The notes: generated from the sequence alone by a model not told the origin. 64,000 nt of DNA from Clostridia bacterium (GCA_045627045.1 JAZQMY010000005.1:26531-90530), one strand, 5' to 3'; shown: positions 11,567-60,439, counted from the stretch's first letter. Numbers and translations: made by a program.

Positions 11567-11574
11567 TATTTTTT

Positions 11575-11609
11575 TGATAAAAAGAAAACGGGGGTACTAC
11601 CTCCGTTTT
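11575..11609. terminator. Terminator after spoVT
   Basis: Hairpin AACGGGGG-tacta-CCTCCGTT with T-runs on both strands. Confidence 0.7.
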
Positions 11610-11622
11610 GAAAATTGCGCTG

Positions 11623-12180
11623 TTACATTGTCATCTGTCTTGCAAGAAGTGCGGCGGTGGTTCTGACGGCGGCGGCAGTGGCTTCGCTGAATTCCTTTCC
11701 GTCACCTTTGATGAAGGCAATTACCGCACCTATTGCATCGCCCTCGGGGAGAATCGGCGCAATGCATTGTGAACGGTATTCATCCGCATTCGTTTCTTTT
11801 TCGGTGATGGCGATGGGCAGGGAAGCGGAGCCTTTGTTCATGAGCTTTACTTTTTTATCCCATATGATTTTGGCAACTCCCGTGGTGATGCCGACTTCAA
11901 GGTATTCCTTTCTTGAGGCGTGCTGAACGGATATTATCGTATCGTTGTCGCAGATGACAACTGTGCAGCCAAGCACATCGGAAAGCCCCTCTGCGTACTC
12001 ATCCGCAATATCCGAGAGTTCACGCACGGGAGAATACTTTTTCAGTGCGATCGTGTTGTCTATATCGGTGAAAATTTCTATGGGACTGCCTTCCTTTATT
12101 TTCATTGTTCTTCTTATTTCCTTAGGAATGACTATTCTTCCGAGATCGTCTATCCGTCTGACTATTCCTGTTGCTTTCAT
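11623..12180 (-). CDS. spoVT: Stage V sporulation protein T (AbrB-type DNA-binding + GAF domain)
   Basis: MKATGIVRRIDDLGRIVIPKEIRRTMKIKEGSPIEIF..LKKYSP.. is nearly colinear with B. subtilis SpoVT, including the C-terminal GDAIGAV.. and LARQM. Confidence 0.93.
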   Translation of the reverse strand: MKATGIVRRIDDLGRIVIPKEIRRTMKIKEGSPIEIFTDIDNTIALKKYSPVRELSDIADEYAEGLSDVLGCTVVICDNDTIISVQHASRKEYLEVGITTGVAKIIWDKKVKLMNKGSASLPIAITEKETNADEYRSQCIAPILPEGDAIGAVIAFIKGDGKEFSEATAAAVRTTAALLARQMTM

Positions 12181-39377: not shown

Positions 39378-39542
39378 GCAATACGCAGGAAAAGGCTCGT
39401 ATGGGCCGCCGAAGGAGTAACACTCTCAGGTATCGATTCGATGGGACTGTGTATGTGCAGAGCTCCGGAGAAGTCCACTAAATGGGTACCGAAGGTGCAA
39501 GGCTTTAAGCCGAATCTCTCAGGTAAAAGGACGGAGGTCTTA
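39378..39542 (+). ncRNA. Tandem glycine riboswitch
   Basis: Two aptamers: ..GGAAAAGG..CCGAAGGAGTAA..CTCTCAGG..GGGAC and CTCCGGAGAAG..ACCGAAGGTGCAAG..CTCTCAGGTAAAAGGACGGAG. Upstream of an alanine/glycine symporter, which is a classical context. Confidence 0.88.
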
Positions 39543-39574
39543 AGCGAGTTATAGAATAACTTGTATTTTTTCCG

Positions 39575-42910: not shown

Positions 42911-43657
42911 TCAGATATTAATGACGTTGATGGATCTGCATATATCATTAAGGAGATCAAAGAATGAGTCAAGAGTGATCTGAGCGGATAACATTACGGT
43001 ATCAACTTCAACACCGTAGTATTCCAGGTAGTATTGAAGATTATCCTCTGAAAATGCGAAGTAAGCACAAATATCGTCAAAAGCCAGGGATTCCTCGTCA
43101 ATATGCATATACTTTGTAAGTGAATGCAAATCAAACATATAAGGATTATATTCTTCCGGCATAAGCTCAACTGTTATCTGACCTGAAGTGCAGTCTACTA
43201 GAAGTATCCTGTCATAATAGCTGAACACGAGGACTTCCTTTTCTGCTGACATACCTCTGATCAGGTTTTCAAGGCTGTCTTTTTTAGTACAATCAATTAC
43301 GAAAAGCCCATTGGTGAACGGATTATTCATATATCCGAATTTGCTTTCAGATAATTCGGAAATTGTTGCCTGAAAATAATAATCTGTTTCAAGCTCAAAT
43401 TCACATGAATCATTCATTACAAGATAGGTACAATCCATAAGAATAACGTCTGAAGAACCATTATGAGGATTCTTGGGAGAGAAAAATACAGATGTGAGCA
43501 AAATCGACAACAGAATTACTGCTGCTGAAGCAGAAATAATAGCAGTGTAGACTGTTTTGCGCTTTGAATTTTTTGAATTTGTTTTTTGCGGATTTGCTTC
43601 TTCAATGTAGATATCATCAATTGATGAAAGCTGTTTACTTAATTCTAATTTATTCAT
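42911..43657 (-). CDS. Putative anti-sigma factor / single-pass membrane protein
   Basis: ATGA overlap with the upstream ECF sigma gene. Short cytoplasmic N-terminus, one TM (VYTAIISASAAVILLSILL) and an extracytoplasmic domain. Confidence 0.55.
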   Translation of the reverse strand: MNKLELSKQLSSIDDIYIEEANPQKTNSKNSKRKTVYTAIISASAAVILLSILLTSVFFSPKNPHNGSSDVILMDCTYLVMNDSCEFELETDYYFQATISELSESKFGYMNNPFTNGLFVIDCTKKDSLENLIRGMSAEKEVLVFSYYDRILLVDCTSGQITVELMPEEYNPYMFDLHSLTKYMHIDEESLAFDDICAYFAFSEDNLQYYLEYYGVEVDTVMLSAQITLDSFFDLLNDICRSINVINI

Positions 43658-44202
43658 AATATATTCTCCTTTATCAAGTGTGTTTTAAGGTCTGATCTTG
43701 TTCTGTGCAGAACAGTTTTAACATTGCTTTCGGTTAGTGAGTTGTTTTTTGCAATTTCAGATATGGAGCAGCAGTAAAAGTATCTCTGAATAAATACTAT
43801 CCTGTCACGCTTTGACAGCGTAGCAAGAAATACGTTCAGAGCATTCTTAATAGCAAGACTGTTTGTAATGTCGGGAGTGTTATCAGGAAAGCACTCTGAG
43901 AACTCATCGATTGAAACATCTGCTTCAGAATTTCGCTTTGATGCTGTTTTTCTGTCAAACATATTCAAAGCAATATTTCTTGTGATCCTGCCCAGGTAGG
44001 CACGAAGATTATCAGGATGCTCAGGCGGAATGTTATTCCATACGGCTAAAAGCGCATCGTTTATACATTCTTCGGCATCTTCGTTTGAATTCAGAATATT
44101 ATAAGCTATGTAGCTCATGTATCGTTTGTATTGCTTTTCTGTTTCGAGAATTGCATTTTCAGAACGGATGGAAAACAACTGCAACAGTTCCTTATCATTC
44201 AT
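43654..44202 (-). CDS. ECF-type RNA polymerase sigma factor
   Basis: Start moved to ATG 44202 after AAGGAGG. Region 2 (..DAEECINDALLAVW..) and a region 4 HTH (CSISEIAKNNSLTESNVKTVLHRTR). Confidence 0.8.
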   Translation of the reverse strand: MNDKELLQLFSIRSENAILETEKQYKRYMSYIAYNILNSNEDAEECINDALLAVWNNIPPEHPDNLRAYLGRITRNIALNMFDRKTASKRNSEADVSIDEFSECFPDNTPDITNSLAIKNALNVFLATLSKRDRIVFIQRYFYCCSISEIAKNNSLTESNVKTVLHRTRSDLKTHLIKENIL

Positions 44203-44531
44203 GATATACCTCCTTGTTTTAGCTGAAAGGCCTTTCAATACTAAAGTAATAATTTGCCATAAAAAGGTTACAAAATAAAAAAATAATTATGAACTGCCGT
44301 ATATACTAACATAATCAGATAATAAAGTCAATCAGTTCTATGTCAGCAGGCAGGATAGTTATTACGGATAATTATAATTTGTTTTTCGGAAAAGTGTGGT
44401 CAGAGAAGGGCTGATGCCGGATAGGATAAAAATGTTATGTAGTAAAGAGATTGTTGATTGATTTTGTATCTTGCCAGGAAACTTCAGCATAAAATCGAAA
44501 GCGAAGGCATCCACCTCGCTTTTTTGACATG

Positions 44532-44676: not shown

Positions 44677-45693
44677 TTACAGTGTGTATTTCTCTTGCAA
44701 GCATTGTATCAATTTAGGTATATATTCAATTTCATTTGCTATTATTTCTTTTATAGTATTGTCGATGTTTTCAAAATGCTTTTTATTCTGAGTTAATTCC
44801 ATTTTTATACCGAGAAGATGTATGTTTTCGGCTCTTTTATAATTCGTTTTTGCAAACAAACAAATTTCCTGGTTTTCAGGTAAAAACAAGTCACAGATTT
44901 GATTTAGAATCCACTCATGTTCAAGCAACACTCTTGCATACCTTCTGTCAACGTAAGCGTAGTCACTGTTTGTAATTTCATTTATGAAATAATCTCTTAC
45001 TCTTATGAGAGTCGAAATACCAAGAGATGCCTCATTAGGTAAATATTCTATTTCTGAAATATAGTCTTTAAGGTTTTTTATCATTCTTTTTATATTTGGT
45101 TCAGGTTCTGCGTTATCATTATAGCTTATAAAGTCAAGATTAATCAGTTCTCCTTTAATTGTCATTAGCCCAAGAATTACCTCTGCTTGTGAAGATTCAA
45201 ATCTCTCAAATACCCCGTTTTCAGTGTATCCTTCTAAAATGAAATTATCATCGTTATAACCGATAATTAAGAAATCGTGTGTATAATCAAAGTTGTGATA
45301 TGCATTTGTATGACAGACGTACTTCTCGTTGATGTTGCCATGAACATAGCAATTGTTATCTAATGATTCCTTTAAGATATACGATAAATTCAAACCGAAA
45401 ACATCCACTAAATCTTTCCGAATATATAAAGTCTGCTTAACCGTTAGTTTCTCTTCTGTTCCCCATAAATCTGTTGTCAAAATATTAAATTTGTTGTTTT
45501 TTGAATTTGGATAATATGAACAACTAACACATTTTGTGCATGCCCATTTTGTTATCTCTTGTGGAGCATTTGCCTGAATAATACCAAATGGATATGCAAG
45601 ATTATGATAACTTAATAATATTGGTTTTTCGGGGAACGGTAATATTTTCATTTCGTTAAATCTCATATTTTCTGATCTATAATTTGTTGACAT
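44677..45693 (-). CDS. Hypothetical protein, possibly papain-fold (C39/BtrH-N-like)
   Basis: 338 aa. Overlaps the FkbH-like gene end by 17 nt. The HDFLIIGYNDDNFILEGY segment resembles the catalytic-His strand (H-x-hydrophobic-GYD) of C39-like/BtrH-like proteins. Otherwise unrecognised. Confidence 0.5.
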   Translation of the reverse strand: MSTNYRSENMRFNEMKILPFPEKPILLSYHNLAYPFGIIQANAPQEITKWACTKCVSCSYYPNSKNNKFNILTTDLWGTEEKLTVKQTLYIRKDLVDVFGLNLSYILKESLDNNCYVHGNINEKYVCHTNAYHNFDYTHDFLIIGYNDDNFILEGYTENGVFERFESSQAEVILGLMTIKGELINLDFISYNDNAEPEPNIKRMIKNLKDYISEIEYLPNEASLGISTLIRVRDYFINEITNSDYAYVDRRYARVLLEHEWILNQICDLFLPENQEICLFAKTNYKRAENIHLLGIKMELTQNKKHFENIDNTIKEIIANEIEYIPKLIQCLQEKYTL

Positions 45694-47140
45694 AATTACA
45701 ATTTAGCATCCTTTCTTTGAGCCAAGCAGAAAAGTCTGCGTTTTTCCCGGTATTCCCGATTGCAATATCCGTTATTATTTCTTGTTTCAGAAGATAATTT
45801 GCCATCTGTTCTTCTACCCCTTTTCCGATTACACGGCATGAAAGTGAGAACAGTTTCACTTTCTCATTTTGAATTGCCATTGCTCCGATCAAACCGTAAT
45901 CGCTGACGGTGTCTTTGTAATACACAGAGTATAGTGTCCCTTTTTCATCAAGCAGTGTTTTCAGACCCCCGATGGTAAAACGGCCTCCGTTGGTTTTTTG
46001 GTTCGTCCGCATAGACAGTTCAGATATCCGTTTCCATTCGCTACTGTCGGCAGGATGTATTTCCGTTTCTCCGATAGTATTCATTGTATCTATTGATGCC
46101 TGCTCTGCTTTGAAATTCATTGCCCGGATTTTTGCTGTATCACTGTTGTTTTCTTTTAGCTTGAAGCAAGAAAGATCTCTATATACGGTATACGGATCAA
46201 AAAGAACTGTCTGAACTTCCGGCAAAAGGAAATTCATTTCTTTTATTTCTTCCGCGGAATCATCGACAAATACAATACTGTCCGGAGAGATATGCAGCAA
46301 CCCGGCCATTTCTCTAATGTTATCTGCCTTTCTTGTATAACCCGCGCGAATAATTGCGAAGTCTGTGTCTTTCAGTAACATTCCTGTATGGCTTTTCAGA
46401 ACTTCTGACAATGTTTCCTTATCATTCTTGGAACAGATACACAGGATGACTCCTCCTTTTAAGAGCCGAAGGACAAATCTTTGAAAATCCTTGTATTTCT
46501 CTGAGATATCTATTCCTTCTATGCCGTCTTCGTTCAGGATACCTCCCCACAGGACACCATCACAGTCCAGCGTAAGACATTTCTTGGTTTTGGAATATGC
46601 GATACAGTATTGGGTATATACTTCCTCCGCTATTTTTTTTATCAGTATCTCGGAATAAGGAGAGTTCCAGCGGTATTTCCCCTTTGCATTATATGAGTTG
46701 TTTATTCCGACTTCGGCGATTATCCTCTTAAAATCAATCAGCACGTCTGTTTCATCCAGAATTTCGGAAATATACAGATTGAGTTTATCGGACAGCCCAT
46801 GATATGAGAGTAGGTTGCCGAATACATTGCTCTCTTTCAAGTAATAGTCTTCAAACCCGAGCCAGAGGATTTGTGCATTTGTTTTCTCCCTTACGGTTCC
46901 GTATATTTCAGTACATTTGTTACACATATCGATATACCCAGTAATATCCGGAACCAGACTCCATTCACTCAGATGAAGATATAATAAGGCAAAATCCACA
47001 TCGAATGTGCGGATTTCAAAAACAGAATTCAAATATATGTATGTAATCTCGATATTATCAGAAAACACCTCAGTAAAACAGGGCTTCAAATATGGCTCAA
47101 AGTTCACGTTGCTGATAACCGCTATCCGAATCATACTCAC
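45677..47140 (-). CDS. FkbH-like HAD-IIIC family protein
   Basis: 487 aa. HAD motif I in the FkbH form LDCDGVLWGG, motif FVDDS, and a C-terminal GNAT-like part. ATGA overlap with the ACP gene. Confidence 0.7.
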   Translation of the reverse strand: MSMIRIAVISNVNFEPYLKPCFTEVFSDNIEITYIYLNSVFEIRTFDVDFALLYLHLSEWSLVPDITGYIDMCNKCTEIYGTVREKTNAQILWLGFEDYYLKESNVFGNLLSYHGLSDKLNLYISEILDETDVLIDFKRIIAEVGINNSYNAKGKYRWNSPYSEILIKKIAEEVYTQYCIAYSKTKKCLTLDCDGVLWGGILNEDGIEGIDISEKYKDFQRFVLRLLKGGVILCICSKNDKETLSEVLKSHTGMLLKDTDFAIIRAGYTRKADNIREMAGLLHISPDSIVFVDDSAEEIKEMNFLLPEVQTVLFDPYTVYRDLSCFKLKENNSDTAKIRAMNFKAEQASIDTMNTIGETEIHPADSSEWKRISELSMRTNQKTNGGRFTIGGLKTLLDEKGTLYSVYYKDTVSDYGLIGAMAIQNEKVKLFSLSCRVIGKGVEEQMANYLLKQEIITDIAIGNTGKNADFSAWLKERMLNCNYVNKL

Positions 47141-47391
47141 GAATCCTCTAATATTTCATTAATAACGTCCATTATGTGGGATATTGAGTCCAATTCCAAC
47201 ATTGTCAGTTTTTCGTCTGGAAAATCAAAGTCATATGTTTCTTCCAATTTTACTATTACCGAAATAAAAACTATAGAGTCTACACCTATTTCTATTAGGT
47301 TCTTTTCTGTGTCTTCCTCTGTAATTTTAAGTTCATCTGTGCATGAATTGAACATCTCAATAAGCTCCTTGATAGTTGGCTTCTTATTCAT
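47137..47391 (-). CDS. Acyl carrier protein
   Basis: 84 aa, acidic, with phosphopantetheine attachment motif GVDSIVF. Confidence 0.8.
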   Translation of the reverse strand: MNKKPTIKELIEMFNSCTDELKITEEDTEKNLIEIGVDSIVFISVIVKLEETYDFDFPDEKLTMLELDSISHIMDVINEILEDS

Positions 47392-48280
47392 CGTTTGCTC
47401 CCATAAAAACTTTTTTATTGATTTCTATCTTTCTTCTGTCTCTGTCGGTCAGGTCGGCTTCTATTAAAGGCAAGAGGTTATCTGCTTCCAACCGTGTGTT
47501 AAAGTCTACTTTCCACTCTTTTCGCTCTTTTTCGCAAAGCCCGTAAAGGTTCAGAAGTCTTTCTCCCTCCGGCGTACGGAATGCTTCGATGTATTTCTTC
47601 AGTATTTCATCCTCAAACACCTGGCTGGTATAATAAAGGACGTAAAAGACATATGGGATTATTTCATATTCCGAACTGATTCTGTACAGCTTTTCAATAG
47701 ATATTTCTTCAAAATTATTCTTTAGAAGATAATACACATCCTTGAACATTTCGTATTTGATACTATTCCTTGTCGCAAGAAGAAAGATACTGTTCATATC
47801 TTTATAATGATGGAGGATAAGCTGTACCATCGTTTTTAGCGGAGGAAGTGTTTTGACCTTTACCCCGTATATTTCCATATCTACTGTATCTGATAGGAAT
47901 TCCTCTATATCCACTCTTTTCTCTTCATATTCGCCCCAAAATATATCATAATTTATATCAATTGTAATAGGTAGATTCCCTACTTTAATTGCGTACTTTT
48001 GCAATTGATGCGAAGAAAGAAGGGGGAGAGCTCTGCTTATCCGATTAGAACACTGGCAAAAACCTATTTTTTGTAAAATACTTTCAACAACTTCTAAATT
48101 ATCTCGAGATACCAAAATATCAATATCTTGATATTGACGCAATCCCGACCTTTCGTATGCCATAATTGATAACGGTTCTCCTTTTATCAAAGCATAGGGT
48201 ATATCACCATTACCAAGTTGGTTCAACATGCCAGAACAACGTGAATACATTGCACTATATATTATGCTAGAATCAATCAT
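47384..48280 (-). CDS. Nucleotidyltransferase-family protein (NTP_transf_5-like)
   Basis: 298 aa. LKGEPLS...YQDIDILV resembles the uncharacterised nucleotidyltransferases found with HPr-kinase-like genes in peptide clusters. 8-nt overlap with the ACP gene. Confidence 0.6.
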   Translation of the reverse strand: MIDSSIIYSAMYSRCSGMLNQLGNGDIPYALIKGEPLSIMAYERSGLRQYQDIDILVSRDNLEVVESILQKIGFCQCSNRISRALPLLSSHQLQKYAIKVGNLPITIDINYDIFWGEYEEKRVDIEEFLSDTVDMEIYGVKVKTLPPLKTMVQLILHHYKDMNSIFLLATRNSIKYEMFKDVYYLLKNNFEEISIEKLYRISSEYEIIPYVFYVLYYTSQVFEDEILKKYIEAFRTPEGERLLNLYGLCEKERKEWKVDFNTRLEADNLLPLIEADLTDRDRRKIEINKKVFMGANDE

Positions 48281-48994
48281 ATAATACTGGTATAATTAAA
48301 TCATCCCCCAGCAAAAGATTCAATTACAAACTTCCTTTTCAAAAATTGGACTGTATGATATAATACTTGTGCTTTTAGGAGAACAGAGGATCAGGCACTG
48401 CTGGGAAGCGACCTGAGCACCGTTCCAGATTTTAAGAAGGAAAATACTTCCGATTGAATTGGCTCATCGCCCTTCGGAAAACATAAGGCAATAAACCAAT
48501 CCGGTAACTTTTTTGAAAAGTCCCATAATCCATTTCATATTTGAACTACAGCGACTTCGGTTGACTGGTTAATGGAGGGCTTGGCTGCGAGCTTTTTCCA
48601 GTTATTGTTATTAGTTTGTTATAGCGAAGGGCACATGCTCTTAGACTAGTTATAGGAAACCAGGGAATTGGGGAAGGTTACTCAGGGAGCACCGTGGCTT
48701 TTTCTTCATTTTCAAGGCGGACCGTCACATCCTCGTCGGTATCGATGTTGCATTCAAAAAGCATGATTATTTCATACTCCGCAAAGAAAGTGGTGAAACT
48801 AAAGTAGCTGCACTTCTCAACGGGCACTAAAAATGCGCCGCAGGACAACTCATAGAAGCTACTGGACACACGTAGAACTAAAGTCTGACTGCTACGCTTT
48901 TGAACTCACTGACAACATTGAGGAATTCGAATATATCTAACGCCACGTTGATAATTCTAATCAATAATGCTACATATTTGCAATGAATTTGTGT

Positions 48995-49906
48995 TCAGAC
49001 ATCGGTTAAATACTCGCAAATTTCCGCAATATCGTCAGCAGTTTTTTCGATTTCCTCAAGATTGTTCGGGATGATAATTTTGTAAAAAACCACCTTATCT
49101 GTAATTTCGTTAAACAAAAAAGATTTTTCAACCATATCGCAAAATTTGTACCCTAAAGAATTTGTTCCACATATGTTAAAATGAAGCAACATTTTTTTAT
49201 TGAACGTATTAGACACTTTATTCAATGATACCTTTTTACTGTTTTCGCGTTGAATAACGATGATAGAATCGATAGGTTGGCATGTTGTTCGATGTGTCCA
49301 TTTATCAGGTGGCTTCAGATATATCTTATTTTGTATATTTCTCCTCAAATCACAGTTTTCGCTATGTAATTGCAAAGCTTCATATGCAGTTTCAGTCAAT
49401 TTTAAACAATTTGCCCCAGAATATCCCACTATTCTCTCGTGCAAACATATTGCGATTGTATCGTCTGAAAAGAATGGATACCGCTTTTTTACAATTGCAG
49501 AGACCAATGTTGTTTTTCCTGAGCCTTTAGGAGCACATATCGGAATTAAATGGTTATTACAAATAAAACCTGATCCGTGCAATAACAACATTTGTTTACG
49601 AACTAAAAACAAGGCAAACGGTAAATTGAGTAAAGTTGATTGAATTTGTTCCAAAGTTATGGCTTGAGCAAAAATTATGTTACTATTATAATCCAGTCTG
49701 TATTTAATGTTTGAGTTGAGTTCCAACTCGTCGATTTCATCTCTCATATTAACACTAACAAACATTTTATCGTCCACACAATTGTTATCACACAAACTGA
49801 TTTCTAGAGTAACTACATCCATAAAAATTTGATTCGAATAAACGTCCAATATATTCAACTCATAATTGGATAATAATTTGAATCCATACAAATAATACTG
49901 AAACAA
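48995..49906 (-). CDS. HPr-kinase-C-terminal-domain-like P-loop protein (HprK-related kinase)
   Basis: 303 aa. LLLHGSGFI...ICAPKGSGKTTL matches the HprK-like core (hHGS/A..G....GxSGxGKS/T). Confidence 0.65.
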   Translation of the reverse strand: MFQYYLYGFKLLSNYELNILDVYSNQIFMDVVTLEISLCDNNCVDDKMFVSVNMRDEIDELELNSNIKYRLDYNSNIIFAQAITLEQIQSTLLNLPFALFLVRKQMLLLHGSGFICNNHLIPICAPKGSGKTTLVSAIVKKRYPFFSDDTIAICLHERIVGYSGANCLKLTETAYEALQLHSENCDLRRNIQNKIYLKPPDKWTHRTTCQPIDSIIVIQRENSKKVSLNKVSNTFNKKMLLHFNICGTNSLGYKFCDMVEKSFLFNEITDKVVFYKIIIPNNLEEIEKTADDIAEICEYLTDV

Positions 49907-49933: not shown

Positions 49934-51631
49934 TTACTTATTCTCAACGATTTCAATTAACTGTCCTTTTTGAAACCGTAACACTACATCCGCAAACTTA
50001 GTCAGCTCATGATTGTGTGTGACAAATATAATTATTCTGTCATTACTATTCTTTTCGCACATATGCTGTATAATAGACTCTCCTGAAGCACTATCAATAG
50101 CGCTAGTAGGTTCATCCATAACAACTATTCTTTTATCTTTTAGATTTAAAGCAGCACGTATATTTGCTAGCTTTTGTTTTTCTCCGCCTGAGCACTCCAA
50201 ACCGGTGGCAACAAATGTTTTAGAATAATCGTTTTGTATTTCATTAAATCTGTCTAAATTAAAAACTCTGGTGAGATTAAGATACTCCTTCATATCATCT
50301 TCGTTTTCAATCAAAAGATTGTTTTTGATACTCATTCCGTCAATAAATTGAAAATCCTGCAAAATGCTTGAAACCTTTGAGTAATAATCAATCAAATTAA
50401 TCTCAGATAATAGGTGATCATTTACCAGTATCTGTCCTTCTGTTGGCCGATATAGTCCTAATATCAATTTTATGAGGGTACTTTTTCCTGACCCGTTTTC
50501 CCCAATAATAGCATAAGTTTTCCCTAACAAAAAATCAAAAGTAATCTTTGATAAAGCAAAACCATCTGTACCATAGTAACGATAAGAAACCTCTTTAAGT
50601 GAAATACAATTTATCTTATCGTCTCTCAATTTTTGTGTCGATATGTTAGATTCTGTTATTTGTTTGAACTTTTCATAATTCTTGCTCTCTAACACTCCTC
50701 CATAAAGGCTTGCAACCAATTTAATCATAGAAAAAAGCACACCGCTAAATTGCAAGGATGTATTTAATGTCACGGTGTAGTCGCCAATCGTCATTTCGCC
50801 TGATAACAACATATACCCAAATAATATCATAATGCCAAGCGTTACACTATTTTGCAAAACATTACCTGCTTGCGTGTAATAGAATAACCTAAGATTATTC
50901 TTAAAAGTGGATGTAATAAACGATTTTGAAATATCCGTAAATGTATATTTTAGAATTGGGTAAGTCCCATTGAGTCGAATATCTCTAGCTTGTTGTTTGT
51001 TTAGCAACAAGCCTTGAAAATAATTGATTTTTCTCCTCATTAATGTCGTTTGATTATTATACTCAACATCACACTTCGCCTTTTTTATCATTAACACATA
51101 ATTGACTATTACACTAGCAGAAATAGCTAATAACACCAAATAATTGAATTGAGCAACGATATAAATATACGATATAATAGTTATCGTGGTAGAGACTACA
51201 TTCAGAAATGTGTCAAAAACCCTTAATCCCACACCCGTTGCAAAGCCAAACGCTCTCTGAAAAATATTTGCTGTTTCAACATCATCATAATAATCGTATT
51301 GCATAATGAACATTCTGTCTAACGCTTCGCTCGTAATTAATAAATTGGCCTGCTGCAAGAGCTTATTTGAAAACAATTCAATAACCGCATATATCAATGA
51401 CAGTATTGTTTGCATGATTACAAAAAATACCACATATAAAAGGAAATAGTATATACTTTGTCTTACAACAATTGCGTCCAATATGTATTTAGGCATTACC
51501 GCGCTAAAAACGGGAAAAAAGCCTCCAATTAAAGCCAGCAAAACTTTTAATATAACAAAAATGCAATTTTTCTTTGCCACAGAAAATATAAAATTTAAAT
51601 AAAATTTAATTTCTTTCATAACATACTCCAA
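49934..51631 (-). CDS. ABC exporter, fused permease/ATPase (no peptidase domain)
   Basis: 565 aa. Six-TM N-terminal half, Walker A GENGSGKST, signature CSGGEKQK, Walker B VVMDEPTS. Confidence 0.88.
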   Translation of the reverse strand: MEYVMKEIKFYLNFIFSVAKKNCIFVILKVLLALIGGFFPVFSAVMPKYILDAIVVRQSIYYFLLYVVFFVIMQTILSLIYAVIELFSNKLLQQANLLITSEALDRMFIMQYDYYDDVETANIFQRAFGFATGVGLRVFDTFLNVVSTTITIISYIYIVAQFNYLVLLAISASVIVNYVLMIKKAKCDVEYNNQTTLMRRKINYFQGLLLNKQQARDIRLNGTYPILKYTFTDISKSFITSTFKNNLRLFYYTQAGNVLQNSVTLGIMILFGYMLLSGEMTIGDYTVTLNTSLQFSGVLFSMIKLVASLYGGVLESKNYEKFKQITESNISTQKLRDDKINCISLKEVSYRYYGTDGFALSKITFDFLLGKTYAIIGENGSGKSTLIKLILGLYRPTEGQILVNDHLLSEINLIDYYSKVSSILQDFQFIDGMSIKNNLLIENEDDMKEYLNLTRVFNLDRFNEIQNDYSKTFVATGLECSGGEKQKLANIRAALNLKDKRIVVMDEPTSAIDSASGESIIQHMCEKNSNDRIIIFVTHNHELTKFADVVLRFQKGQLIEIVENK

Positions 51632-52252
51632 ATAAAAAGCATAATCATAAGGGAACCTCTATAAATTGAATTTTTCAGTTCCCGTTTTTGATTTTTCGGT
51701 TCAAATTTCGAAATTATTTCCATGCACATATTATAAACAAGATTAGTAAGACCGATATTGAACTTGGCTCTCTCAATACCGATTGAACGTACAGTAAGCC
51801 CATGCATTGTCATTGTCATAAAACCGAATACATGCTCAATTCTTGCTCTTGTTTTGGTCTTGATTCGATTGCTTTCTTTTTGCTTTGCTGTCAAAGATTT
51901 AAGGCAGCCCTTTTCATGAACATGATTGGTTACGTGCTTTGGTAATTCTTTTCCTGCATAGGCGGCTGTCGACATAAACTTATTTATCGTTTTTGTCGAT
52001 AAAATCCACAAACCCATTGCTGTCGTGTACATTTGCAGATGTTACGGCATAATCGATGATAAGCTTGCTTTCGGCATCGACTTTGGTATGATCCTTATAG
52101 CCGTAATGTGTTTCATTGCCCTTCTTTGTCCAACGGGCATCAGTATCTTTTTGAGCCAGTTTTGCCTTGTTTTCCTCCCATTCTTCAGGTATTTCGCCGT
52201 TTTTTATTATCTTGTTCTCCTCACTGTTGTTTCTTCGATGGGAAGCGTCCAC
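51616..52252 (-). pseudogene. IS5-family transposase remnant (5'-truncated, frameshifted)
   Basis: Two overlapping ORF fragments (..QKDTDARWTKKGNETHYGYKDHTKVD.. and ..RARIEHVFGFM....RSIGIERAKFNIGLTNLVYN) cover only the DDE core. The N-terminal third is missing and there is a frame shift near 52030. Confidence 0.8.
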
Positions 52253-52268
52253 ATACGTACTATCTCTA

Positions 52269-53621
52269 TCAAAATAATCTGGTTTTGCTTTTTTCGTAAT
52301 TCAAGTATACAATTTGATCCAAATTGTCCTTGGTGGGAGAGCACTTGGGTGATACCTCAAAACCATTTTTCACTCTATATGCAGGGCATGAAGATCCACA
52401 GCAAAATGGATATGCAATACACCCGAAACACTTATTTTTGCGTAGATACTCTATGTAAAATTTATCATCCAAAATCCATAATTTCTCTTTTTCAGCGTTT
52501 ATGTTAAAATACCCTTCGTTAATATCTCCAATTACAAATGGGGATTCACAATCTGGTGATTCTTCCAATGTACATTTTCCGATGCATCCATTTTTGTATA
52601 TAACATATGTGTGTTTTTTATTAGCATAGCACAACTCTGATCCACAAGCAAAATTATAGTGTTTTGCAGGGTAAATATCCATTTCCCCGCACTTCTTCAA
52701 CAATTGCTCCATTATGTATGGATGATACTCACTAGAAATGGCAGAGTATTGGTCGTCATTTTCACCGCCCCAGTGTCCAATAGCCTTAAAGGCTATTTCA
52801 AATCTAGCATCATCCTTGAAATTAAAACTGAAATACTCCAAAAATCTCTCAATGCTGTTAAGAATTTCAAAATTGTAATTAACACGTATTAAAACTTTAA
52901 ACTGCTTCTCTATAGTTTTCATTTGCAATAAATTATTGGTTATTCTTTCCCACGTTGGATTGCCAAACTTGTCATATCTATATTTATCATGAGTTTCCGC
53001 CATCCCGTCCACTGTGATTTGGAAAATATTAACGCTTGCATCAATTAATTCTTCAGCAAGTTTTTTCTTAAGAAGTGAACCATTTGTTGTCATACTGTGC
53101 TGAAATACAATATTTTTTGATTGACAGAAATTATTAATACGAGTCGTTAAGTCAAGTATTTGGTCATAAAACAGCAATGGCTCACCGCCAAACCATTCAA
53201 TTTTCAAAAAACCAAATCCGACAGTTTCATAGTGTGCTACAATAGAAGAATATATATTTTCAATCGTTGCTTGACTCATAAATCCCGCTTCTTTATTCTC
53301 ATAGCAATACTTGCATTTGAAATTGCATTCTAATGTAGGAAAAATAATTAGTGATAAACTATTTTCATCTCCAATAATTTTTCTTATTTGGTGATATACC
53401 CTCAAATCTTCATCGTCATTCACGGCAACGCAATAGTTTTCAACTATGCGTTTATCTAATTGTTCGGAACTAATTGGACGATCTACTAGCGAACGAATTT
53501 GCTGAATTAAAGATTCATCAAATATAACACTTTGTTTTCCAGTAACAGTATTATATACTATCATTTCTTCGGTTTCATCTAGTTCTATGACCTTTGTATA
53601 TTTTGATAATGTGTATTTCAT
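52269..53621 (-). CDS. Radical SAM/SPASM peptide maturase with N-terminal RRE-like extension
   Basis: 450 aa. CNFKCKYC (CX3CX2C) at about residue 90. C-terminal Cys cluster CFGCIAYPFCCGSSCP (SPASM-like). The N-terminal 85 aa (..EEMIVYNTVTGKQSVIFDES..) looks like a PqqD/RRE-type domain. Confidence 0.8.
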   Translation of the reverse strand: MKYTLSKYTKVIELDETEEMIVYNTVTGKQSVIFDESLIQQIRSLVDRPISSEQLDKRIVENYCVAVNDDEDLRVYHQIRKIIGDENSLSLIIFPTLECNFKCKYCYENKEAGFMSQATIENIYSSIVAHYETVGFGFLKIEWFGGEPLLFYDQILDLTTRINNFCQSKNIVFQHSMTTNGSLLKKKLAEELIDASVNIFQITVDGMAETHDKYRYDKFGNPTWERITNNLLQMKTIEKQFKVLIRVNYNFEILNSIERFLEYFSFNFKDDARFEIAFKAIGHWGGENDDQYSAISSEYHPYIMEQLLKKCGEMDIYPAKHYNFACGSELCYANKKHTYVIYKNGCIGKCTLEESPDCESPFVIGDINEGYFNINAEKEKLWILDDKFYIEYLRKNKCFGCIAYPFCCGSSCPAYRVKNGFEVSPKCSPTKDNLDQIVYLNYEKSKTRLF

Positions 53622-53932
53622 ATTAATCTCAATTCTGCCGCTAAAGCATCACCACAAATAGGAATGAAAGAGTGCTACTAGGCGGCGATTTTGTAACAAT
53701 TTTCTGTTAAAATGTTTTCAGGGAGAAGACACACTACAACGCACAGGGAGGTGAGTCGTAGAAGTACTTCTTGCTGAAAACAGTATTTTAATCAGTGTTA
53801 GAATCATCTTGTCAAGCACAAATAAGTGTTGACACCGAGCACGTACGCTAAAAAATGTTTTAACGCCTGTTAAATTGTGTGATGATTCAGTCACTGTCTT
53901 CTCCTCACAGCTTAATTTGAGGAGGGATATTT

Positions 53933-55160
53933 TTGAAAGTTGTATTTCCTGTTTGCTACGGTATCGATGTTTACAAAACATTTTTGGTCGGAACGACTAT
54001 TTCAACCACAGACGGTGTACACCCGCATTACCAAAAGAAACGCTTTTCCACATATAATTCAGACCCGCATCGCTTTGCCGACTGGCTTCTCGCAAACAAC
54101 CGCTATGATATCTGTATGGAATCCGCTGGCAAGTATTGGGTTCCGATTTTCAACATTCTTGAAGAATGCGGCATCCGTGTTGCGATTTTCAATCCCAAAT
54201 AGGTAAAAGCCGTCAAGGGTAACAAGGACGATATAAAACGACTTGTTTCGTTTGAGGCTTTTCCCGGGGAGTTTTATTCCGCCTAAGGAAATTCGCATCC
54301 TTCGTGAATTTGCCCGCTATCGCTACAAACTAGTTTCAGTGAAAAGCAGTGAGAAAAACCATTTTCAAAACGCTTTTACCGTTTGTAATGTTGCTCTTGA
54401 TTCTGTTGTTTCGGATATGTTCGGCAAATCTGCAACTGCAATTACAGATTACCTCATCTCCGAAGATTCATTCAATCTGGAATATTGCGTCTCTCTTTTA
54501 CAGCGTTCCCTGAAAAAGAAGTCCGATTCCGTGCTTGAATCCATTGAAGGATATTCCATTACAAATGAGCAAAAATTGCAAATGAGAATTGTACGTTCTC
54601 ATCTGTATTACATTACTAGCACTATTTCTCAGGTGGATTCTGCGATTGATGCGATGGTCGCAAAGCACGATGTGGTGATTTCTCTGCTCTGTACTATTCC
54701 CGGTGTTGACCGCAATTCTGTCATTACGATCATTTCCGAAATCGGTACCGATATATCTCAATTCGGTTCCTCAAAACGCCTGTGCTGCTGGGCGGGACTA
54801 ACGCCCAATAACAATGAATTTGCCGGCAAGAAAAAGTCTGTTCGCATTACACGTGCTGGAGTATATCTCAAACCTGCATTGGTGCAAATTGCCCATGCAG
54901 CCGTGAAACCAACCGACAATTCTTACCACCGTTTGAAGTATGAGCAAATTTCCAAGTGCAGAGGAAAGAAACGAGCCATCATTGCCATCGCACGGATGAT
55001 TCTCACTGCTGTTTTCAAAATGATGTCTACCGGCGAAGTCTGGAATCATAAAAATCTCTTCAAAGTCGATATGCCGAAATCACTCATAGAACGCAAACTT
55101 ACCAAAGCTGTCAAACAAGCCACTAAATTCCTTGAAAAGCAAGGATTGACCGTTTCTTAG
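53933..55160 (+). pseudogene. IS110-family transposase, disrupted
   Basis: The N-terminal DEDD domain (VCYGIDVYKTF...MESAGKYW) ends at an in-frame TAG where IS110 proteins have NPKW. The frame then changes before the C-terminal domain (FIPPKEIRILREFARYRYKL...). Confidence 0.8.
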
Positions 55161-55351
55161 TTCTTTGTTGAATACCTTTTCGTTAACCTTGCAAAAAAAT
55201 ATCGTCTTGCAATGTCTTTTCCTTATGCCTTTCGTCATGTGGACGTGGTATTTCTTTTACGCTAACACCTTTAATTATATTAACAACAGCGACGTTCAAA
55301 ATAGTTAATAAACTTCCTTGAACAATTCTGCCAATAAAAATTTCGAATATC

Positions 55352-55405
55352 ATTCCGAGACGCCAAACGACAAAGCAACTTGGCATCTCGGAATCCGTTT
55401 TTTTT
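55352..55405 (+). terminator. Strong hairpin plus T-run (terminator in plus orientation, probably IS110-associated)
   Basis: ATTCCGAGACGCCAA / TTGGCATCTCGGAAT 15-bp stem followed by CCGTTTTTTTT. Confidence 0.65.
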
Positions 55406-55502
55406 GTGGCAATCTCATTTTTGAAATGCAGATTACCACGGGGCTACCGCCACTCACAATGACAACTCAATCCCATTTTACTACTTCGACTTTATATTTG
55501 CG

Positions 55503-55628
55503 TTATGAACATGCGATGCCCAAATTGGGCGAACAACCACATTGTGGAACAATATTTATTGTTCCACCGCATCCAGGAATAAAGTTAATTCCGTTGGGGG
55601 CAGTTATGTTGTTATCAAAATCCTTCAC
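55503..55628 (-). CDS. Candidate RiPP precursor peptide B (41 aa, not in ORF track)
   Basis: GTG start 9 nt after AAAGGAG. Translation: (M)KDFDNNITAPNGINFIPGCGGTINIVPQCGCSPNLGIACS. Paralogous to peptide A. Confidence 0.7.
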   Translation of the reverse strand: MKDFDNNITAPNGINFIPGCGGTINIVPQCGCSPNLGIACS

Positions 55629-55677
55629 ACCAATATACTCCTTTCTGTGTTGTGATTATCAATGAATATTAGTTTAT

Positions 55678-55779
55678 TTAAGAGCAGACACACATATTTA
55701 AATTAATGGTACAGCCACATAATGGAACAATATTGAGATCAAATTGCGGATTCTCTGCTACGGGCAATAAATTACTCAT
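55678..55779 (-). CDS. Candidate RiPP precursor peptide A (33 aa, not in ORF track)
   Basis: ATG 9 nt after GGAGG in AAGGAAGGAGG. Translation: MSNLLPVAENPQFDLNIVPLCGCTINLNMCVCS. Confidence 0.7.
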   Translation of the reverse strand: MSNLLPVAENPQFDLNIVPLCGCTINLNMCVCS

Positions 55780-55982: not shown

Positions 55983-56018
55983 AAAAAAGCACAAACCATC
56001 CCTTAGAATAGTCTGTGC
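55983..56018 (-). terminator. Rho-independent terminator (minus strand) upstream of the precursor genes
   Basis: Minus strand GCACAGAC-14 nt-GTTTGTGC followed by TTTTTT. Confidence 0.6.
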
Positions 56019-56262
56019 ACTATATTTCAAATTCTCTTGGAGAATGTGAGTGTCTTGATTACTAAACAGACATATTCTTTGTTAATTTTATTATACTACA
56101 CTATTTATTATTTGTCAACTATTTAATCACAAAAAATATATATTTTTTATCATTATTTAAATAAAATTTTACACAATATTTCAAACATATTATAATCTTT
56201 TTAAAATTATTACATAATCATTCAGCTTTTCTGATTCTTGTGATTATTTTTTCAAAATACCC

Positions 56263-57074: not shown

Positions 57075-57431
57075 ATGGAGAAAAAGACTGAAAGAATTAA
57101 ATTCTGGCTTACTGACAAGGAACTGAAAAAACTTGACCGTCAGGCAAAGAAAGCAAAAATGACTCGTTCGGAATATATCCGCAAAAAAATCAATGAAAGC
57201 ACAGTAATCATCTCACCGGAGATTGATTACGAAAGCTATTACAAAGAGTTCCACCGACTCGGAGATGAATTGAACGGTTACGTTGTCAAACTGAACACGA
57301 CCGGAGTCTTCAATGAAAAAAAGACGGATCGTATTATTACAGAGCTTAACGAGCTGATGAAAAAATTTGACACCGAAGCAACCGAAAAGCTGAATGAAAA
57401 CATTAAAAAAGCTAATGGAGAGCCGGTATGA
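57075..57431 (+). CDS. MobC-like ribbon-helix-helix protein
   Basis: 118 aa. ..FWLTDKELKKLDRQAKKAKMTRSEYIRKKI.. is the typical MobC/RHH N-terminus. Confidence 0.65.
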   Translation: MEKKTERIKFWLTDKELKKLDRQAKKAKMTRSEYIRKKINESTVIISPEIDYESYYKEFHRLGDELNGYVVKLNTTGVFNEKKTDRIITELNELMKKFDTEATEKLNENIKKANGEPV

Positions 57432-57787
57432 GAAACAGTAAGCATTATATTCAGGCAAGAGTATCGCCAAGTGAGAAAGACCACTTCTTACGAGTGACGG
57501 AACTTTGTAATATGACAGAACACACAGTTCTTGACCATTATCTGGAAGGATATCCGCTCGCAGAGCACCCACCGGAAGAATTTTGGGAGCTCGACAGATT
57601 GCTTTTGAGAATCACATTGCTGCTAAGCCATGTATGGCTTAGCAAAAATATGCGTTTGGAAAAGCAACAGAACAAATATTACACTGCACAGAAACAACTG
57701 AACAAACTCTGCAATAATGCTTTTTGGAAAATAAAACTCGCTGATCCAGATTATGGAAACGACAGCAACGATAAAAGAAAGGGCTAA
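57428..57787 (+). CDS. Hypothetical protein, second MobC/RHH-like
   Basis: 119 aa. ..ARVSPSEKDHFLRVTELCNMTEHTVLDHYL.. resembles RHH relaxosome accessory proteins. ATGA overlap with the previous gene. Confidence 0.5.
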   Translation: MRNSKHYIQARVSPSEKDHFLRVTELCNMTEHTVLDHYLEGYPLAEHPPEEFWELDRLLLRITLLLSHVWLSKNMRLEKQQNKYYTAQKQLNKLCNNAFWKIKLADPDYGNDSNDKRKG

Positions 57788-57796
57788 ACACACAAT

Positions 57797-58027
57797 ATGA
57801 AAAGAAATAGATGGATATGCGGATTGCTCACAGGAAAACAGGAATATTTGATAAACGGCGTAAAGTATATTGTATCAGCCGAATTTGAAAAACGGGATTC
57901 AAGTAATACAATACGCTCCCGTTTTGAGCATGCAATAAAAAGTGAAATGATAGATTTGACAATACGGCCGTCTGATGATATAATAAGAAAGGAATATATG
58001 TATTCGGCTGCCGGAAAGGAGGATTAA
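57797..58027 (+). CDS. Small transposon-associated protein (TnpW-like, tentative)
   Basis: 76 aa, immediately preceding (stop/start adjacent) the serine recombinase, as small ORFs do in Tn4451-type elements. Confidence 0.45.
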   Translation: MKRNRWICGLLTGKQEYLINGVKYIVSAEFEKRDSSNTIRSRFEHAIKSEMIDLTIRPSDDIIRKEYMYSAAGKED

Positions 58028-59743
58028 ATGCAGTCGAAAAACAAAAAAGTAAAAAGCGAAGAAACAGGAATCACAGCACTGTATAGCCGTCTTTCACGGG
58101 ACGACGGATCAGACAGTGAAAGCAATTCTATTGCCAATCAGAAAAAACTGCTTTCTCAAAAGGCAAAGGAGCTGGGGCTGACCAATACAAAGCATTATGT
58201 TGATGACGGTTACACGGGGACAAACTTCAATCGCCCGGCATTTCAGCAGATGACAGAGGATATTGAGATGGGATATGTTACAACTGTTATGGTGAAGGAT
58301 TTATCCCGTCTGGGCAGAGATTATGTTTCAGTAGGAAATTATACTGACAGATATTTTCCGGAGCACAACGTCCGTTTTATCGCCGTTAACGACGGCATAG
58401 ACAGCGACGAGGGCGAAAGTGAAATCGCACCGTTCAAGAATATTCTGAACGAAATGTACGCAAGGGATATTTCAAAAAAGATAAGAAGCTCGCACCGTCT
58501 GCGTGGCAATGCCGGTGAACCGCTTTCACAACCGCCTTACGGATATATGAAATCACCCGAAAACAAGAAAAAGTGGATTGTAGATTATGAAGCAGCAGAA
58601 ATCGTAAAGCGTATATTCAGGATGTGCATTGAAGGCAACGGAAACGAAACAATTGCTCACTCACTGCAGAACGAAAAAATTCTGAATCCGATGGCATACT
58701 GGCGAAGCAAAGGTCTCAACAGAGGCGGCAAAAGGACACAGCCGGATCCTTATCATTGGTGTAAAACCACAGTACAAAAAATACTTGCACAGCAGGAATA
58801 CTGCGGCGACATAATCAACTTCAAAACATATTCGAAGAATTTCAAAAACAAAAACCGTCTTGAAAACCCGAAGGAGAACTGGGTGATTTTCAAAGATGTT
58901 CATGAACCGATTATCGACAGGGAGACCTTCGAACAAGTACAACAACTTACCGCAGAAACAAAACGCCGTGCACCGAAACCTGATAATTCACAAAAGAGTA
59001 TATTAAGCGGTTTGATTTATTGCGGAGACTGCCACAATATAATGCGATATCATACGAATACGTCAAACAAAGATATCCATTTTTTCTCGTGTAGCAACAA
59101 TATAGTGGACTATCGAGGTACCTGCCGCAGCCGTCATTATGTCCGTGCTGATTCAGTAGAGCAGGTTATCACGCTTGAACTCAGACGTATGGCTTCTTTC
59201 CTGAAAGCCGACGAAGATGCCTTTGCAGAGCTTCTTGCGCAAAAAACCAACGAATCAATTGCAAAAGAACAGAATCAGGCAAATGATGAGCTGCAGAAAG
59301 CACTTGTACGGAGTGATACAGTTTCACAATTGTACGAAAAGCTCTATGAGGATAACGCTTCGGGAAAGGTATCTGATGAATGGTTTATGCAGCTGTCCCA
59401 TAAATATGAACTGGAACGAATGGAACTTAAGGCAAAGATAACCGAATTACGAAAAAAGCTTTCTGAAATCGGGAGTCGCCAGCAGGAGCGGAACAATTTT
59501 ACCTACGCCATTCGCAAGTTTATGGAGATGGACAAGCTGACTGCACCGCTTCTTCGTGAGCTCATTGATCATATTGATGTTTACGAAACAGAAGGTACTG
59601 GCAAAAACAGAACACAACGGATAGTAATCTATTACCGCTTTGTGGGCTATATTGAATTGCCTGAAAACTTTTTCCGTACAAACTACAAGGCTGATACAAG
59701 GCGTGGTGTTGCAGTGGAGTATATCCCCACAAAGACAGCATAA
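58028..59743 (+). CDS. Large serine recombinase (TnpX/phage-integrase-like)
   Basis: 571 aa. Resolvase catalytic motif ALYSRLSRDD. Recombinase domain. Zinc ribbon CGDCHN...FFSCSN. C-terminal coiled coil. Confidence 0.92.
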   Translation: MQSKNKKVKSEETGITALYSRLSRDDGSDSESNSIANQKKLLSQKAKELGLTNTKHYVDDGYTGTNFNRPAFQQMTEDIEMGYVTTVMVKDLSRLGRDYVSVGNYTDRYFPEHNVRFIAVNDGIDSDEGESEIAPFKNILNEMYARDISKKIRSSHRLRGNAGEPLSQPPYGYMKSPENKKKWIVDYEAAEIVKRIFRMCIEGNGNETIAHSLQNEKILNPMAYWRSKGLNRGGKRTQPDPYHWCKTTVQKILAQQEYCGDIINFKTYSKNFKNKNRLENPKENWVIFKDVHEPIIDRETFEQVQQLTAETKRRAPKPDNSQKSILSGLIYCGDCHNIMRYHTNTSNKDIHFFSCSNNIVDYRGTCRSRHYVRADSVEQVITLELRRMASFLKADEDAFAELLAQKTNESIAKEQNQANDELQKALVRSDTVSQLYEKLYEDNASGKVSDEWFMQLSHKYELERMELKAKITELRKKLSEIGSRQQERNNFTYAIRKFMEMDKLTAPLLRELIDHIDVYETEGTGKNRTQRIVIYYRFVGYIELPENFFRTNYKADTRRGVAVEYIPTKTA

Positions 59744-59799
59744 AACAAACGAGCAGACAAAATGCCTGCTCATACATTAATAAAATTAACATCAAAAAA

Positions 59800-59839
59800 A
59801 TCGAGTATCCATAGGTCAAGTCCCTTATGAATACTCGAT
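59800..59839 (-). terminator. Hairpin in the element's right end that acts as a replacement terminator for tRNA-Leu(GAG) copy 1
   Basis: Immediately after the tRNA CCA, the minus strand reads ATCGAGTAT-22 nt-ATACTCGAT followed by TTTTTTT. Confidence 0.6.
59816..59837 (-). repeat. Right terminal inverted repeat of the element
   Basis: The reverse complement CGAGTATTCATAAGGGACTTGA matches 44572-44593 at 20 of 22 positions. Confidence 0.8.
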
Positions 59840-59840
59840 A

Positions 59841-59923
59841 TGGTGCAGTTGACGGGACTTGAACCCGTACCCTTTCGGACACGCCCCTCAAACGTGCGCG
59901 TATGCCAATTCCGCCACAACTGC
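59841..59923 (-). tRNA. tRNA-Leu (anticodon GAG), copy 1
   Basis: 83 nt. Acceptor GCAGTTG/CAACTGC, anticodon arm CACGT-TTGAGGG-GCGTG, variable arm, T arm ACGGG-TTCAAGT-CCCGT, encoded CCA. Confidence 0.92.
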
Positions 59924-59966
59924 ATTCATATTTACGTCGGCTGATGTCACATCAACTGACATGCGT

Positions 59967-59995
59967 ATTTTACATCTTTTTTTGAATTTTGTCAA
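59967..59995 (-). promoter_or_regulatory. Promoter of tRNA-Leu(GAG) copy 1
   Basis: Minus strand TTGACA, 17 nt, TAAAAT. Confidence 0.65.
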
Positions 59996-60281
59996 GTACT
60001 TTTTTAACAGGCAGGAGATAACCTGCTTGCATATTATTTTCGGAATAATGCAATAAAAACGCTGAAATGAGTATAAAAAGGACACAAAAAATAATAAAAA
60101 ATATTTTCCGAAATACGATTTTTGACTCATTTTTTATAGCTTGGAGGATGAAATGATGCCTTTTGTTGAGTAAAGAATTATGAAGAGCCGAAGTCTGATA
60201 TCAAAACTTCAGAAGACAGAGCAGGAAAGAGACTTTCGCATTGCAGGATATCAGGCAAGTCGGACAGATTCTGACAAAAAG

Positions 60282-60308
60282 AAAAGTGTCCGTGAAACTC
60301 ACGTACAC
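60282..60308 (-). terminator. Terminator of tRNA-Leu(GAG) copy 2 (intact arrangement)
   Basis: Minus strand GTGTACGTGA-gtt-TCACGGACAC followed by TTTT, 6 nt after the tRNA CCA. Confidence 0.8.
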
Positions 60309-60314
60309 TTGATC

Positions 60315-60397
60315 TGGTGCAGTTGACGGGACTTGAACCCGTACCCTTTCGGACACGCCCCTCAAACGTGCGCGTATGCCAATTCCGCCACAACTGC
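60315..60397 (-). tRNA. tRNA-Leu (anticodon GAG), copy 2
   Basis: Sequence identical to copy 1 over all 83 nt. Confidence 0.92.
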
Positions 60398-60439
60398 ATT
60401 ATTTGGTCGCCAATTGATTTCTCATTAACTGACTTGCTT

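Follow-up and report, generated by a model that had tools for sequence, protein, structure and literature searches.

Two short Cys-rich peptides, A and B, encoded in tandem on the minus strand of a contig from a Clostridia bacterium (GCA_045627045.1, JAZQMY010000005.1:26531-90530; the whole stretch of 64,000 nt is referred to here as the window), are probably, at roughly 70%, the precursors of an undescribed family of RiPPs that would be cross-linked through thioethers and phospho-tailored on their terminal Ser. Both peptide genes are conserved, and so is the gene set to which they belong, comprising a radical SAM/SPASM maturase, an ABC exporter, a 303-aa kinase-like protein and a PF14907 nucleotidyltransferase (Table 1).

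Table 1. Features of the peptide cluster, in coordinates of the window.
Feature	Position	Strand	Details and basis
Sigma-70 consensus promoter (predicted), TTGACA-17-TATAAT	56118-56090	minus	pattern scan only; ~210 nt upstream of A
Terminator-like hairpin	56018-55989	minus	~70 nt after the predicted promoter
Shine-Dalgarno of A, GGAGG	55793-55789	minus	9 nt before ATG; read from sequence
Precursor peptide A gene	55678-55779	minus	33 aa; ATG at 55779, stop TAA; C-terminal Ser
Shine-Dalgarno of B, GGAG	55641-55638	minus	9 nt before GTG; read from sequence
Precursor peptide B gene	55503-55628	minus	41 aa; GTG at 55628, stop TAA
IS110-family insertion	53650-55480	plus	between B and maturase gene; boundaries approximate; Pfam
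RRE-radical SAM-SPASM peptide maturase (predicted)	52269-53621	minus	450 aa; motifs, NCBIfam, AF2, Foldseek
DDE_Tnp_1 transposase fragments, two ORFs	51616-52252	minus	between maturase and ABC gene; Pfam
MsbA-like ABC exporter	49934-51631	minus	565 aa; Pfam/NCBIfam
HprK/PEPCK-fold kinase-like protein	48995-49906	minus	303 aa; profile, AF2, Foldseek
PF14907 (NTP_transf_5) nucleotidyltransferase, short form	47384-48280	minus	298 aa; Pfam E 1e-22
Acyl carrier protein	47137-47391	minus	overlaps nucleotidyltransferase gene
FkbH-family protein	45677-47140	minus	overlaps ACP gene
338-aa protein	44677-45693	minus	overlaps FkbH gene

Two paralogous peptides and their relatives

Peptide A (MSNLLPVAENPQFDLNIVPLCGCTINLNMCVCS) has a core made of one full N-x4-C module and one partial module, while peptide B (MKDFDNNITAPNGINFIPGCGGTINIVPQCGCSPNLGIACS, read from its GTG start as (M)KDFDNNITAPNGINFIPGCGGTINIVPQCGCSPNLGIACS) keeps an exact period, N15, C20, N25, C30, N35 and C40, closed by S41. 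The initial annotation, made without database searches, had described the two as unannotated paralogues, each with a Shine-Dalgarno site at 9 nt, assembled from repeated modules of about 10 residues and sharing a terminal Ser. Coordinates, translations and both Shine-Dalgarno sites came out identical when read again. A and B are truly paralogous, since they align by BLASTP at E 1e-5 over NIVP[LQ]CGC[TS].NL and their genes share 77% DNA identity over 35 nt (55522-55556 against 55700-55734). A second BLASTP alignment of the pair, one module out of register (E 2e-4), supports the internal repeat of 10 residues. The closest relative of peptide B (P0124, 80% identical) has an ATG where B has its GTG.

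Homologues of the radical SAM protein were gathered, and the contigs encoding a tight clade with 36–60% identity to the window maturase were analysed. A- and/or B-type ORFs were found in 11 of 11 other distinct loci with an orthologous maturase in this identity range, located directly upstream of the radical SAM gene or, in one case (L096), of the adjacent ABC gene. All 11 encode a B-type peptide, which is accompanied by an orthologue of A in L002, L009, L016, L010, L012, L013, and L096 and stands without A in L006, L011, and L015. In a negative control, 79 viral-contig loci whose radical SAM proteins are only distantly related contained no peptide of either type, so the recurrence next to orthologous maturases exceeds what chance would give. 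This is the setting expected for a radical SAM RiPP precursor, as which A and B had been interpreted in the initial annotation from their Cys-poor leader and Cys-dense repetitive core.

Altogether the family comprises 31 distinct peptides, of which 29 end in Ser, so that the residue first noticed at the end of A and B is family-wide. The leaders are very short (~12–15 residues, consensus M-x-[DE]-[IFLM]...), a point that the initial annotation had not made, and the signature of the family is N-x2-P-x-C recurring every 10 residues. Counting from the first Asn, N(0), P(3), C(5), N(10), and C(15) are invariant in the 21 B-type peptides; offset 20 is N in 15 of them and D in five, a Cys is found at offset 23 or 25, and offset 26 is Ser. 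After the CGC motif there is, in addition, a conserved Ser/Thr.

A conserved gene order, interrupted in the window

Where the cluster is intact the genes follow the order peptide(s), radical SAM/SPASM protein, ABC transporter, 303-aa protein, and PF14907 nucleotidyltransferase, as exemplified by L016 (JAZMFA010000015.1 of GCA_052831625.1), an NCBI assembly in which the cluster sits in a chromosomal housekeeping context. The ABC exporter adjoins the maturase wherever the contig extends far enough. No peptidase domain was detected in the 565-aa exporter, and the cluster lacks a gene for a leader peptidase. Immediately 3′ of the cluster in L011 (8013-10184, plus strand) there is a 723-aa protein with a weak ricin-B-like region and a HEMIH (HExxH) motif; judged by these features it may be a secreted metalloprotease and a candidate leader peptidase, in this one locus only.

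In the window, two insertions that had escaped the initial annotation break this order. An IS110-family element parts the peptides from the maturase, disrupting the adjacency of a short Cys-rich precursor and the maturase gene that is kept across loci, and a second transposase remnant parts the maturase from the exporter. The IS110 transposase is itself split into two plus-strand ORFs (53933-54202, DEDD_Tnp_IS110; 54243-55160, Transposase_20) and is followed by its own terminator hairpin. As a result B and the maturase gene lie 1881 nt apart, compared to 54 nt in L009, and 637 nt of transposase fragments separate the maturase and ABC genes, compared to a 4-nt gap in L009. The stretch between the kinase-like and the nucleotidyltransferase genes (48281-48994, 715 nt) contains no ORF ≥80 aa and resembles nothing in the other loci compared, in which the two genes either overlap or lie end to end. 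Upstream of A, the predicted promoter and the hairpin that follows it (55989-56118, with no Rfam match) could be an operon promoter with its leader, a regulatory leader, or a small RNA, all of which are possible readings of the sequence.

With the operon interrupted by two IS-related insertions, co-expression is doubtful even though the genes are intact, and the separation of the genes by IS elements, together with the lack of a detectable promoter-like site just upstream of the maturase gene, counts against the proposed pathway. The most serious competing explanation, one that we doubt but that deserves real weight, is that the window locus is a decaying remnant in which the IS110 and DDE insertions have uncoupled the peptides from their enzymes and maturation has ceased. 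The opposite-strand transposase and terminator between B and the maturase, the transposase fragments in front of the ABC gene, the ORF-less gap after the kinase-like gene and the missing maturase promoter are what one would expect of such a remnant, but every ORF of the cluster is full length compared with its orthologues, the Shine-Dalgarno sites of both peptides are kept, and a consensus promoter is found upstream of them.

The ACP, FkbH, and 338-aa genes are additions mainly specific to the window, their only trace elsewhere being an ACP-like ORF that overlaps the nucleotidyltransferase stop in L013. Their overlapping starts and stops suggest an extra decoration, of glyceryl or acyl type, in the window variant. 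For the 338-aa protein there is no relative in Pfam, NCBIfam, or the PDB, and none was found in the metagenome-contig scan; a BtrH-like acyltransferase identity was considered from the ACP context and nothing supports it.

At 35.7%, the cluster is lower in G+C than positions 1-35000 of the window (~43%). It is flanked at 57075-60400 by a mobilisation gene of NikA-like type, a serine recombinase of 571 aa, and two tRNA copies (59824-59926 and 60298-60400, 94% identical), and in L006 a relaxase and a 571-aa recombinase are also located beside the cluster. The low G+C and this neighborhood, repeated in L006, suggest mobile cargo, and the sequence makes it likely that the cluster is carried by an integrative mobilisable element. 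Neither the IS110 region nor the recombinase region had a megablast match among plasmids. Neither a family peptide nor a kinase-like gene was found in 79 viral-contig loci, whose radical SAM relatives are all distant (≤36% identity), which argues that the cluster is not phage-borne. Just downstream of the cluster (42911-44238, minus strand) there is an ECF-type sigma factor with a possible membrane anti-sigma partner, and in L006 a sigma-70 region-4 protein directly follows the cluster; from its position, the sigma factor may be a dedicated regulator. The window also contains a glycine riboswitch aptamer (39455-39544, plus strand; Rfam RF00504, 67.6 bits) that is unrelated to the peptides.

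The kinase-like protein, the nucleotidyltransferase, and the terminal Ser

The kinase-like protein has an invariant H110, a P-loop (K127-G-x-G-K-T-T133), and an S147-D-D-T150 motif. Sequence searches of the PDB with the protein or its profile returned only generic P-loop matches, so a fold comparison was required. The AF2 model (pLDDT 83, pTM 0.83) has PEP carboxykinases as its top Foldseek matches (E 8e-8), and the PEP carboxykinase fold superfamily includes the HprK catalytic domain. At the profile level, TIGR04355 (HprK-related kinase B) matches 8/8 orthologues and TIGR04352 (HprK-related kinase A) 7/8, with a best E of 7e-8. Taken together, sequence and model make this protein a likely kinase. 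Its scores of 14–19 bits are nevertheless far below the curated cut-offs of every HprK family (19 at best, against 200), and this, like the restriction of its PDB sequence matches to the P-loop, counts against the phospho-tailoring proposal. Every locus whose contig is long enough has the gene, over a range of 34–60% maturase identity, with orthologues also in L096 and L098.

The PF14907 gene was found in the window and in eight of the nine other distinct loci with enough contig, L010 being the one without it. The protein exists in a short form (~300 aa; window, L013, and L011), which was compared with the proteins of L002, L006, L016, L096, and L098, and in a long form of 490–526 aa with an extra C-terminal domain; BLASTP at E 1e-3 finds no link between the two. 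An ACP gene accompanies the short form.

A sister cluster in L098 (genes 6101-12017) contains the same set of maturase, ABC, kinase-like, and PF14907 genes. The maturase there shares 34% identity with that of the window, and the kinase-like protein matches the family profile at E 3e-44. The two Cys-rich peptides encoded there (7607-7940, plus strand) have NC[TS]Q-type repeats, a core unrelated to that of A and B, and both end in Ser. As the core differs and the Ser end persists, it is the enzyme set and not the core motif that the terminal Ser follows. The initial annotation had not recognised the terminal Ser as family-wide, nor its link to the conserved HprK-like kinase and PF14907 nucleotidyltransferase.

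There are precedents for such a set of enzymes. [quoted passage not shown]

It is unlikely, in our opinion, that the kinase-like protein and the nucleotidyltransferase serve regulation, immunity, or nucleotide metabolism and leave the peptide alone, the Ser being important for something else, e.g., export or recognition by the maturase. The weak similarity to HprK, the absence of a PF14907 gene from L010, and the lack of activity of LppN in a heterologous host (PMC13381572) would be in line with such a role, but it would leave unexplained why the kinase-like gene accompanies the maturase in every sufficiently long locus, why the same trio tailors lasso peptides and LPPs, and why L098 has kept the Ser end through a complete change of core.

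The maturase

The maturase has an invariant C99-x3-C103-x2-C106 and GGEP motif, together with seven conserved C-terminal Cys (C331/C350/C398/C401/C407/C412/C427). In the AF2 model (pLDDT 93.5) the N-terminus forms a beta-sheet with helices, i.e., an RRE-like domain; the CxxxCxxC motif, the approximately seven SPASM Cys, and this domain, the last as predicted by the model, are those typical of a radical SAM/SPASM peptide maturase. The best Foldseek match is CteB (5why; E 2e-17 over 456 columns, N-terminal domain included), other structural neighbors being TigE (a cyclopropylglycine synthase), ChlB, SuiB, and anSME. End-to-end alignments were obtained with the NCBIfam models CefB, TIGR04463, Clo7bot, geopeptide, and PapB, all at scores (109–139 bits) far below the cut-offs (340–600), which indicates a separate subfamily, one that falls in none of the families with known chemistry. 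Looking up the exact protein sequence of the window maturase gave no match, and scanning genome contigs with it recovered one distant relative only (28% identity).

Some other radical SAM chemistry is less probable still than a non-tailoring role of the downstream enzymes. The peptides would remain substrates of the maturase, which would introduce C-C or C-O cross-links, epimerise residues, or carry out a cyclopropyl-type reaction on Ile, Val, or Asn, with the Cys forming disulfides or binding metal. TigE, ChlB, SuiB, and anSME among the structural neighbors, and the position of the maturase outside any family of known chemistry, leave room for this. However, the invariant residues of the core are Cys and Asn and not aliphatics, the nearest NCBIfam families all act on Cys-rich peptides, and the best structural match, CteB, is a thioether-forming enzyme.

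Coding status and rarity of the peptides

A Shine-Dalgarno sequence is located 6–10 nt upstream of every one of the 15 peptide genes examined in nine distinct loci. In codon alignments of the same genes pS (0.5–1.0, mostly saturated) exceeds pN (0.04–0.5) in every pair. The dN/dS values of the B genes range from 0.04 to 0.8, the lowest corresponding to those of L006 and L015, which share 92% protein and 82% DNA identity. Two further distinct loci with both peptide types (L016 and L096) are outside this nine-locus analysis. The initial annotation had proposed to look for conservation of both ORFs and of their ribosome-binding sites, and had named equally frequent synonymous and non-synonymous changes as the outcome that would speak against it. 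What we found is that synonymous changes far exceed non-synonymous ones and that no gene lacks its Shine-Dalgarno site, so the frames are conserved, and A and B are genuine conserved coding genes under purifying selection.

When 5.8 billion clustered proteins were searched with a profile built from the 15 peptides, no more than 20 clusters were retrieved, all of them unnamed and free of Pfam domains. The HMM search that had been suggested for the core motif was run with the family profile, exhaustively, over 1.84 billion representatives and gave 15 matches; four of them are long proteins, and the matches are otherwise nearly all peptides of 31–49 aa with the same layout. The long matches P0147 and P0152 were rejected as members since they turned out to be unrelated repeat proteins on inspection. 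The peptide family is therefore rare, with about 30 distinct members among billions of predicted proteins. The idea that A and B are chance ORFs of an intergenic region, to which their length below that usual in gene calling and the GTG start of B might lead, has a negligible probability and is already refuted by the Shine-Dalgarno and pS/pN results, along with the conservation, the exclusive synteny, and the near absence of anything but such peptides among the profile matches.

Comparison with known systems

Neither A nor B has a match to a model of Pfam or NCBIfam at E ≤0.1, the SCIFF and CefA precursor models included, so the initial annotation was correct in placing the motif in no precursor family known to it. 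The closest resemblance is to ranthipeptides and sactipeptides (PapB-freyrasin, CteB-SCIFF/thermocellin), in which a short Cys-rich precursor with a core of repeated short modules is also encoded upstream of an RRE-radical SAM-SPASM enzyme, and CteB is matched over its full length by the maturase model. The freyrasin precursor carries repeated C-x3-D motifs, whereas in A and B the motif N-x2-P-x-C recurs every 10 residues and the conserved partner is Asn, and their cluster includes in addition the kinase-like and nucleotidyltransferase genes. A and B belong to none of the individual families, whose defining features were absent in each case. For SCIFF/ScfB, A and B have no NCBIfam match and the maturase scores 54.6 bits against a cut-off of 425 (TIGR03974), and for PapB/freyrasin it scores 109.5 bits against 340 (NF047865), the core of A and B being N-x2-P-x-C-G-C. 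The "Cys-every-fifth" system CefA/CefB (NF038108/NF038107) bears some resemblance, as CefB is the top-scoring NCBIfam model for the maturase, the core of A and B shares its 5-residue register (N, C, N, C ...), and CefA weakly matches one peptide of the sister locus L098 (E 0.011); nonetheless, A and B do not match CefA, and with CefB the maturase reaches 139 bits where the cut-off is 600.

The other half of the cluster is reminiscent of the tailoring module of paeninodin and pseudomycoidin (PadeK/PsmK, PsmN, and an ABC exporter), whose precursors also end in the Ser that is phosphorylated in those lasso peptides (PMC6993621). In the A/B cluster, in contrast, it is a radical SAM/SPASM protein that defines the class, the ORFs include neither a lasso cyclase (C) nor a B1 or B2 protein, and the kinase is only distantly HprK-like, a likeness seen in family profiles and fold. 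[quoted passage not shown] The A/B cluster has no discrete RRE gene and no SipW-like signal peptidase gene, and its leaders are devoid of YxxPxVLxHQ. Finally, the best family matches of the 303-aa protein and its orthologues, TIGR04352 and TIGR04355, were defined in cassettes in which HprK-related kinases occur with PqqD-like proteins, radical SAM/SPASM proteins, and nucleotidyltransferases; these cassettes have another precursor family, and a separate PqqD gene is missing from the A/B cluster. Overall, the A/B system looks like a ranthipeptide/sactipeptide pathway fused to paeninodin-like tailoring, outside the SCIFF, PapB, CefAB, lasso, and LPP families.

Proposed pathway and significance

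The thioethers, the ring topology, and the phosphorylation site are predicted by analogy with these systems. The short leader (~12–15 residues) would be bound by the N-terminal RRE-like domain of the maturase, and the enzyme would join the thiols of the periodic Cys (C20, C30, and C40 in B) to carbons of acceptor residues, the likeliest being the invariant Asn (or Asp) five residues from the Cys. PapB uses Asp beta-carbon acceptors and NxxcB uses Asn, and a beta-carbon acceptor of this kind agrees with the change of Asn to Asp at the third module. Each peptide would end up with two or three small thioether rings in succession, comparable to those made by PapB on the repeated motifs of freyrasin. 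The HprK-like kinase would phosphorylate a Ser, most likely the near-invariant C-terminal one as PadeK and PsmK do, and the PF14907 nucleotidyltransferase would put a further group on the phosphate, in the way that PsmN adds a hexose. In the window, the FkbH/ACP pair may supply an extra glyceryl-type unit. The product would be exported by the MsbA-like ABC transporter.

Several observations count against this proposal. The Ser3 target of the LPP kinase, together with the conserved Ser/Thr that follows the CGC motif, weakens the case for the terminal Ser as the modified site, and the missing nucleotidyltransferase of L010, the unusually short leader, and the lack of a peptidase weigh on the pathway as a whole.

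RiPPs are rarely phosphorylated. A list published in 2025 is limited to microcin C, two lasso peptides, phospeptin, a lanthipeptide, and cyanobactins, none of them a thioether peptide from a radical SAM pathway (PMC12639078), and the literature searched links no HprK-type kinase to a radical SAM/SPASM pathway. If our proposal is true, N-x4-C repeats would represent a new precursor scaffold for radical SAM thioether chemistry. The kinase, NTP-transferase, and exporter would then be a portable tailoring cassette common to at least three RiPP classes. A more far-reaching version, to which we give somewhat less than even odds, is that these are the first radical SAM thioether peptides to be also phosphorylated and further decorated on a C-terminal Ser, a hybrid in which ranthipeptide/sactipeptide cross-linking is combined with the HprK-kinase/NTP-transferase tailoring that lasso peptides and LPPs alone are known to have, that this Ser is a universal handle throughout a wider superfamily whose Cys-rich cores are interchangeable, as in L098, and that the FkbH/ACP pair of the window possibly attaches a glyceryl-derived unit via the phosphate. 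With 33–41 residues, A and B would, on our proposal, offer a compact substrate for the study of both enzymes. At least some of the related loci come from gut metagenome assemblies, and this origin, along with the mobilisation and recombinase genes that neighbor the cluster in the window and in L006, suggests that the product may matter for competition within the gut microbiota.
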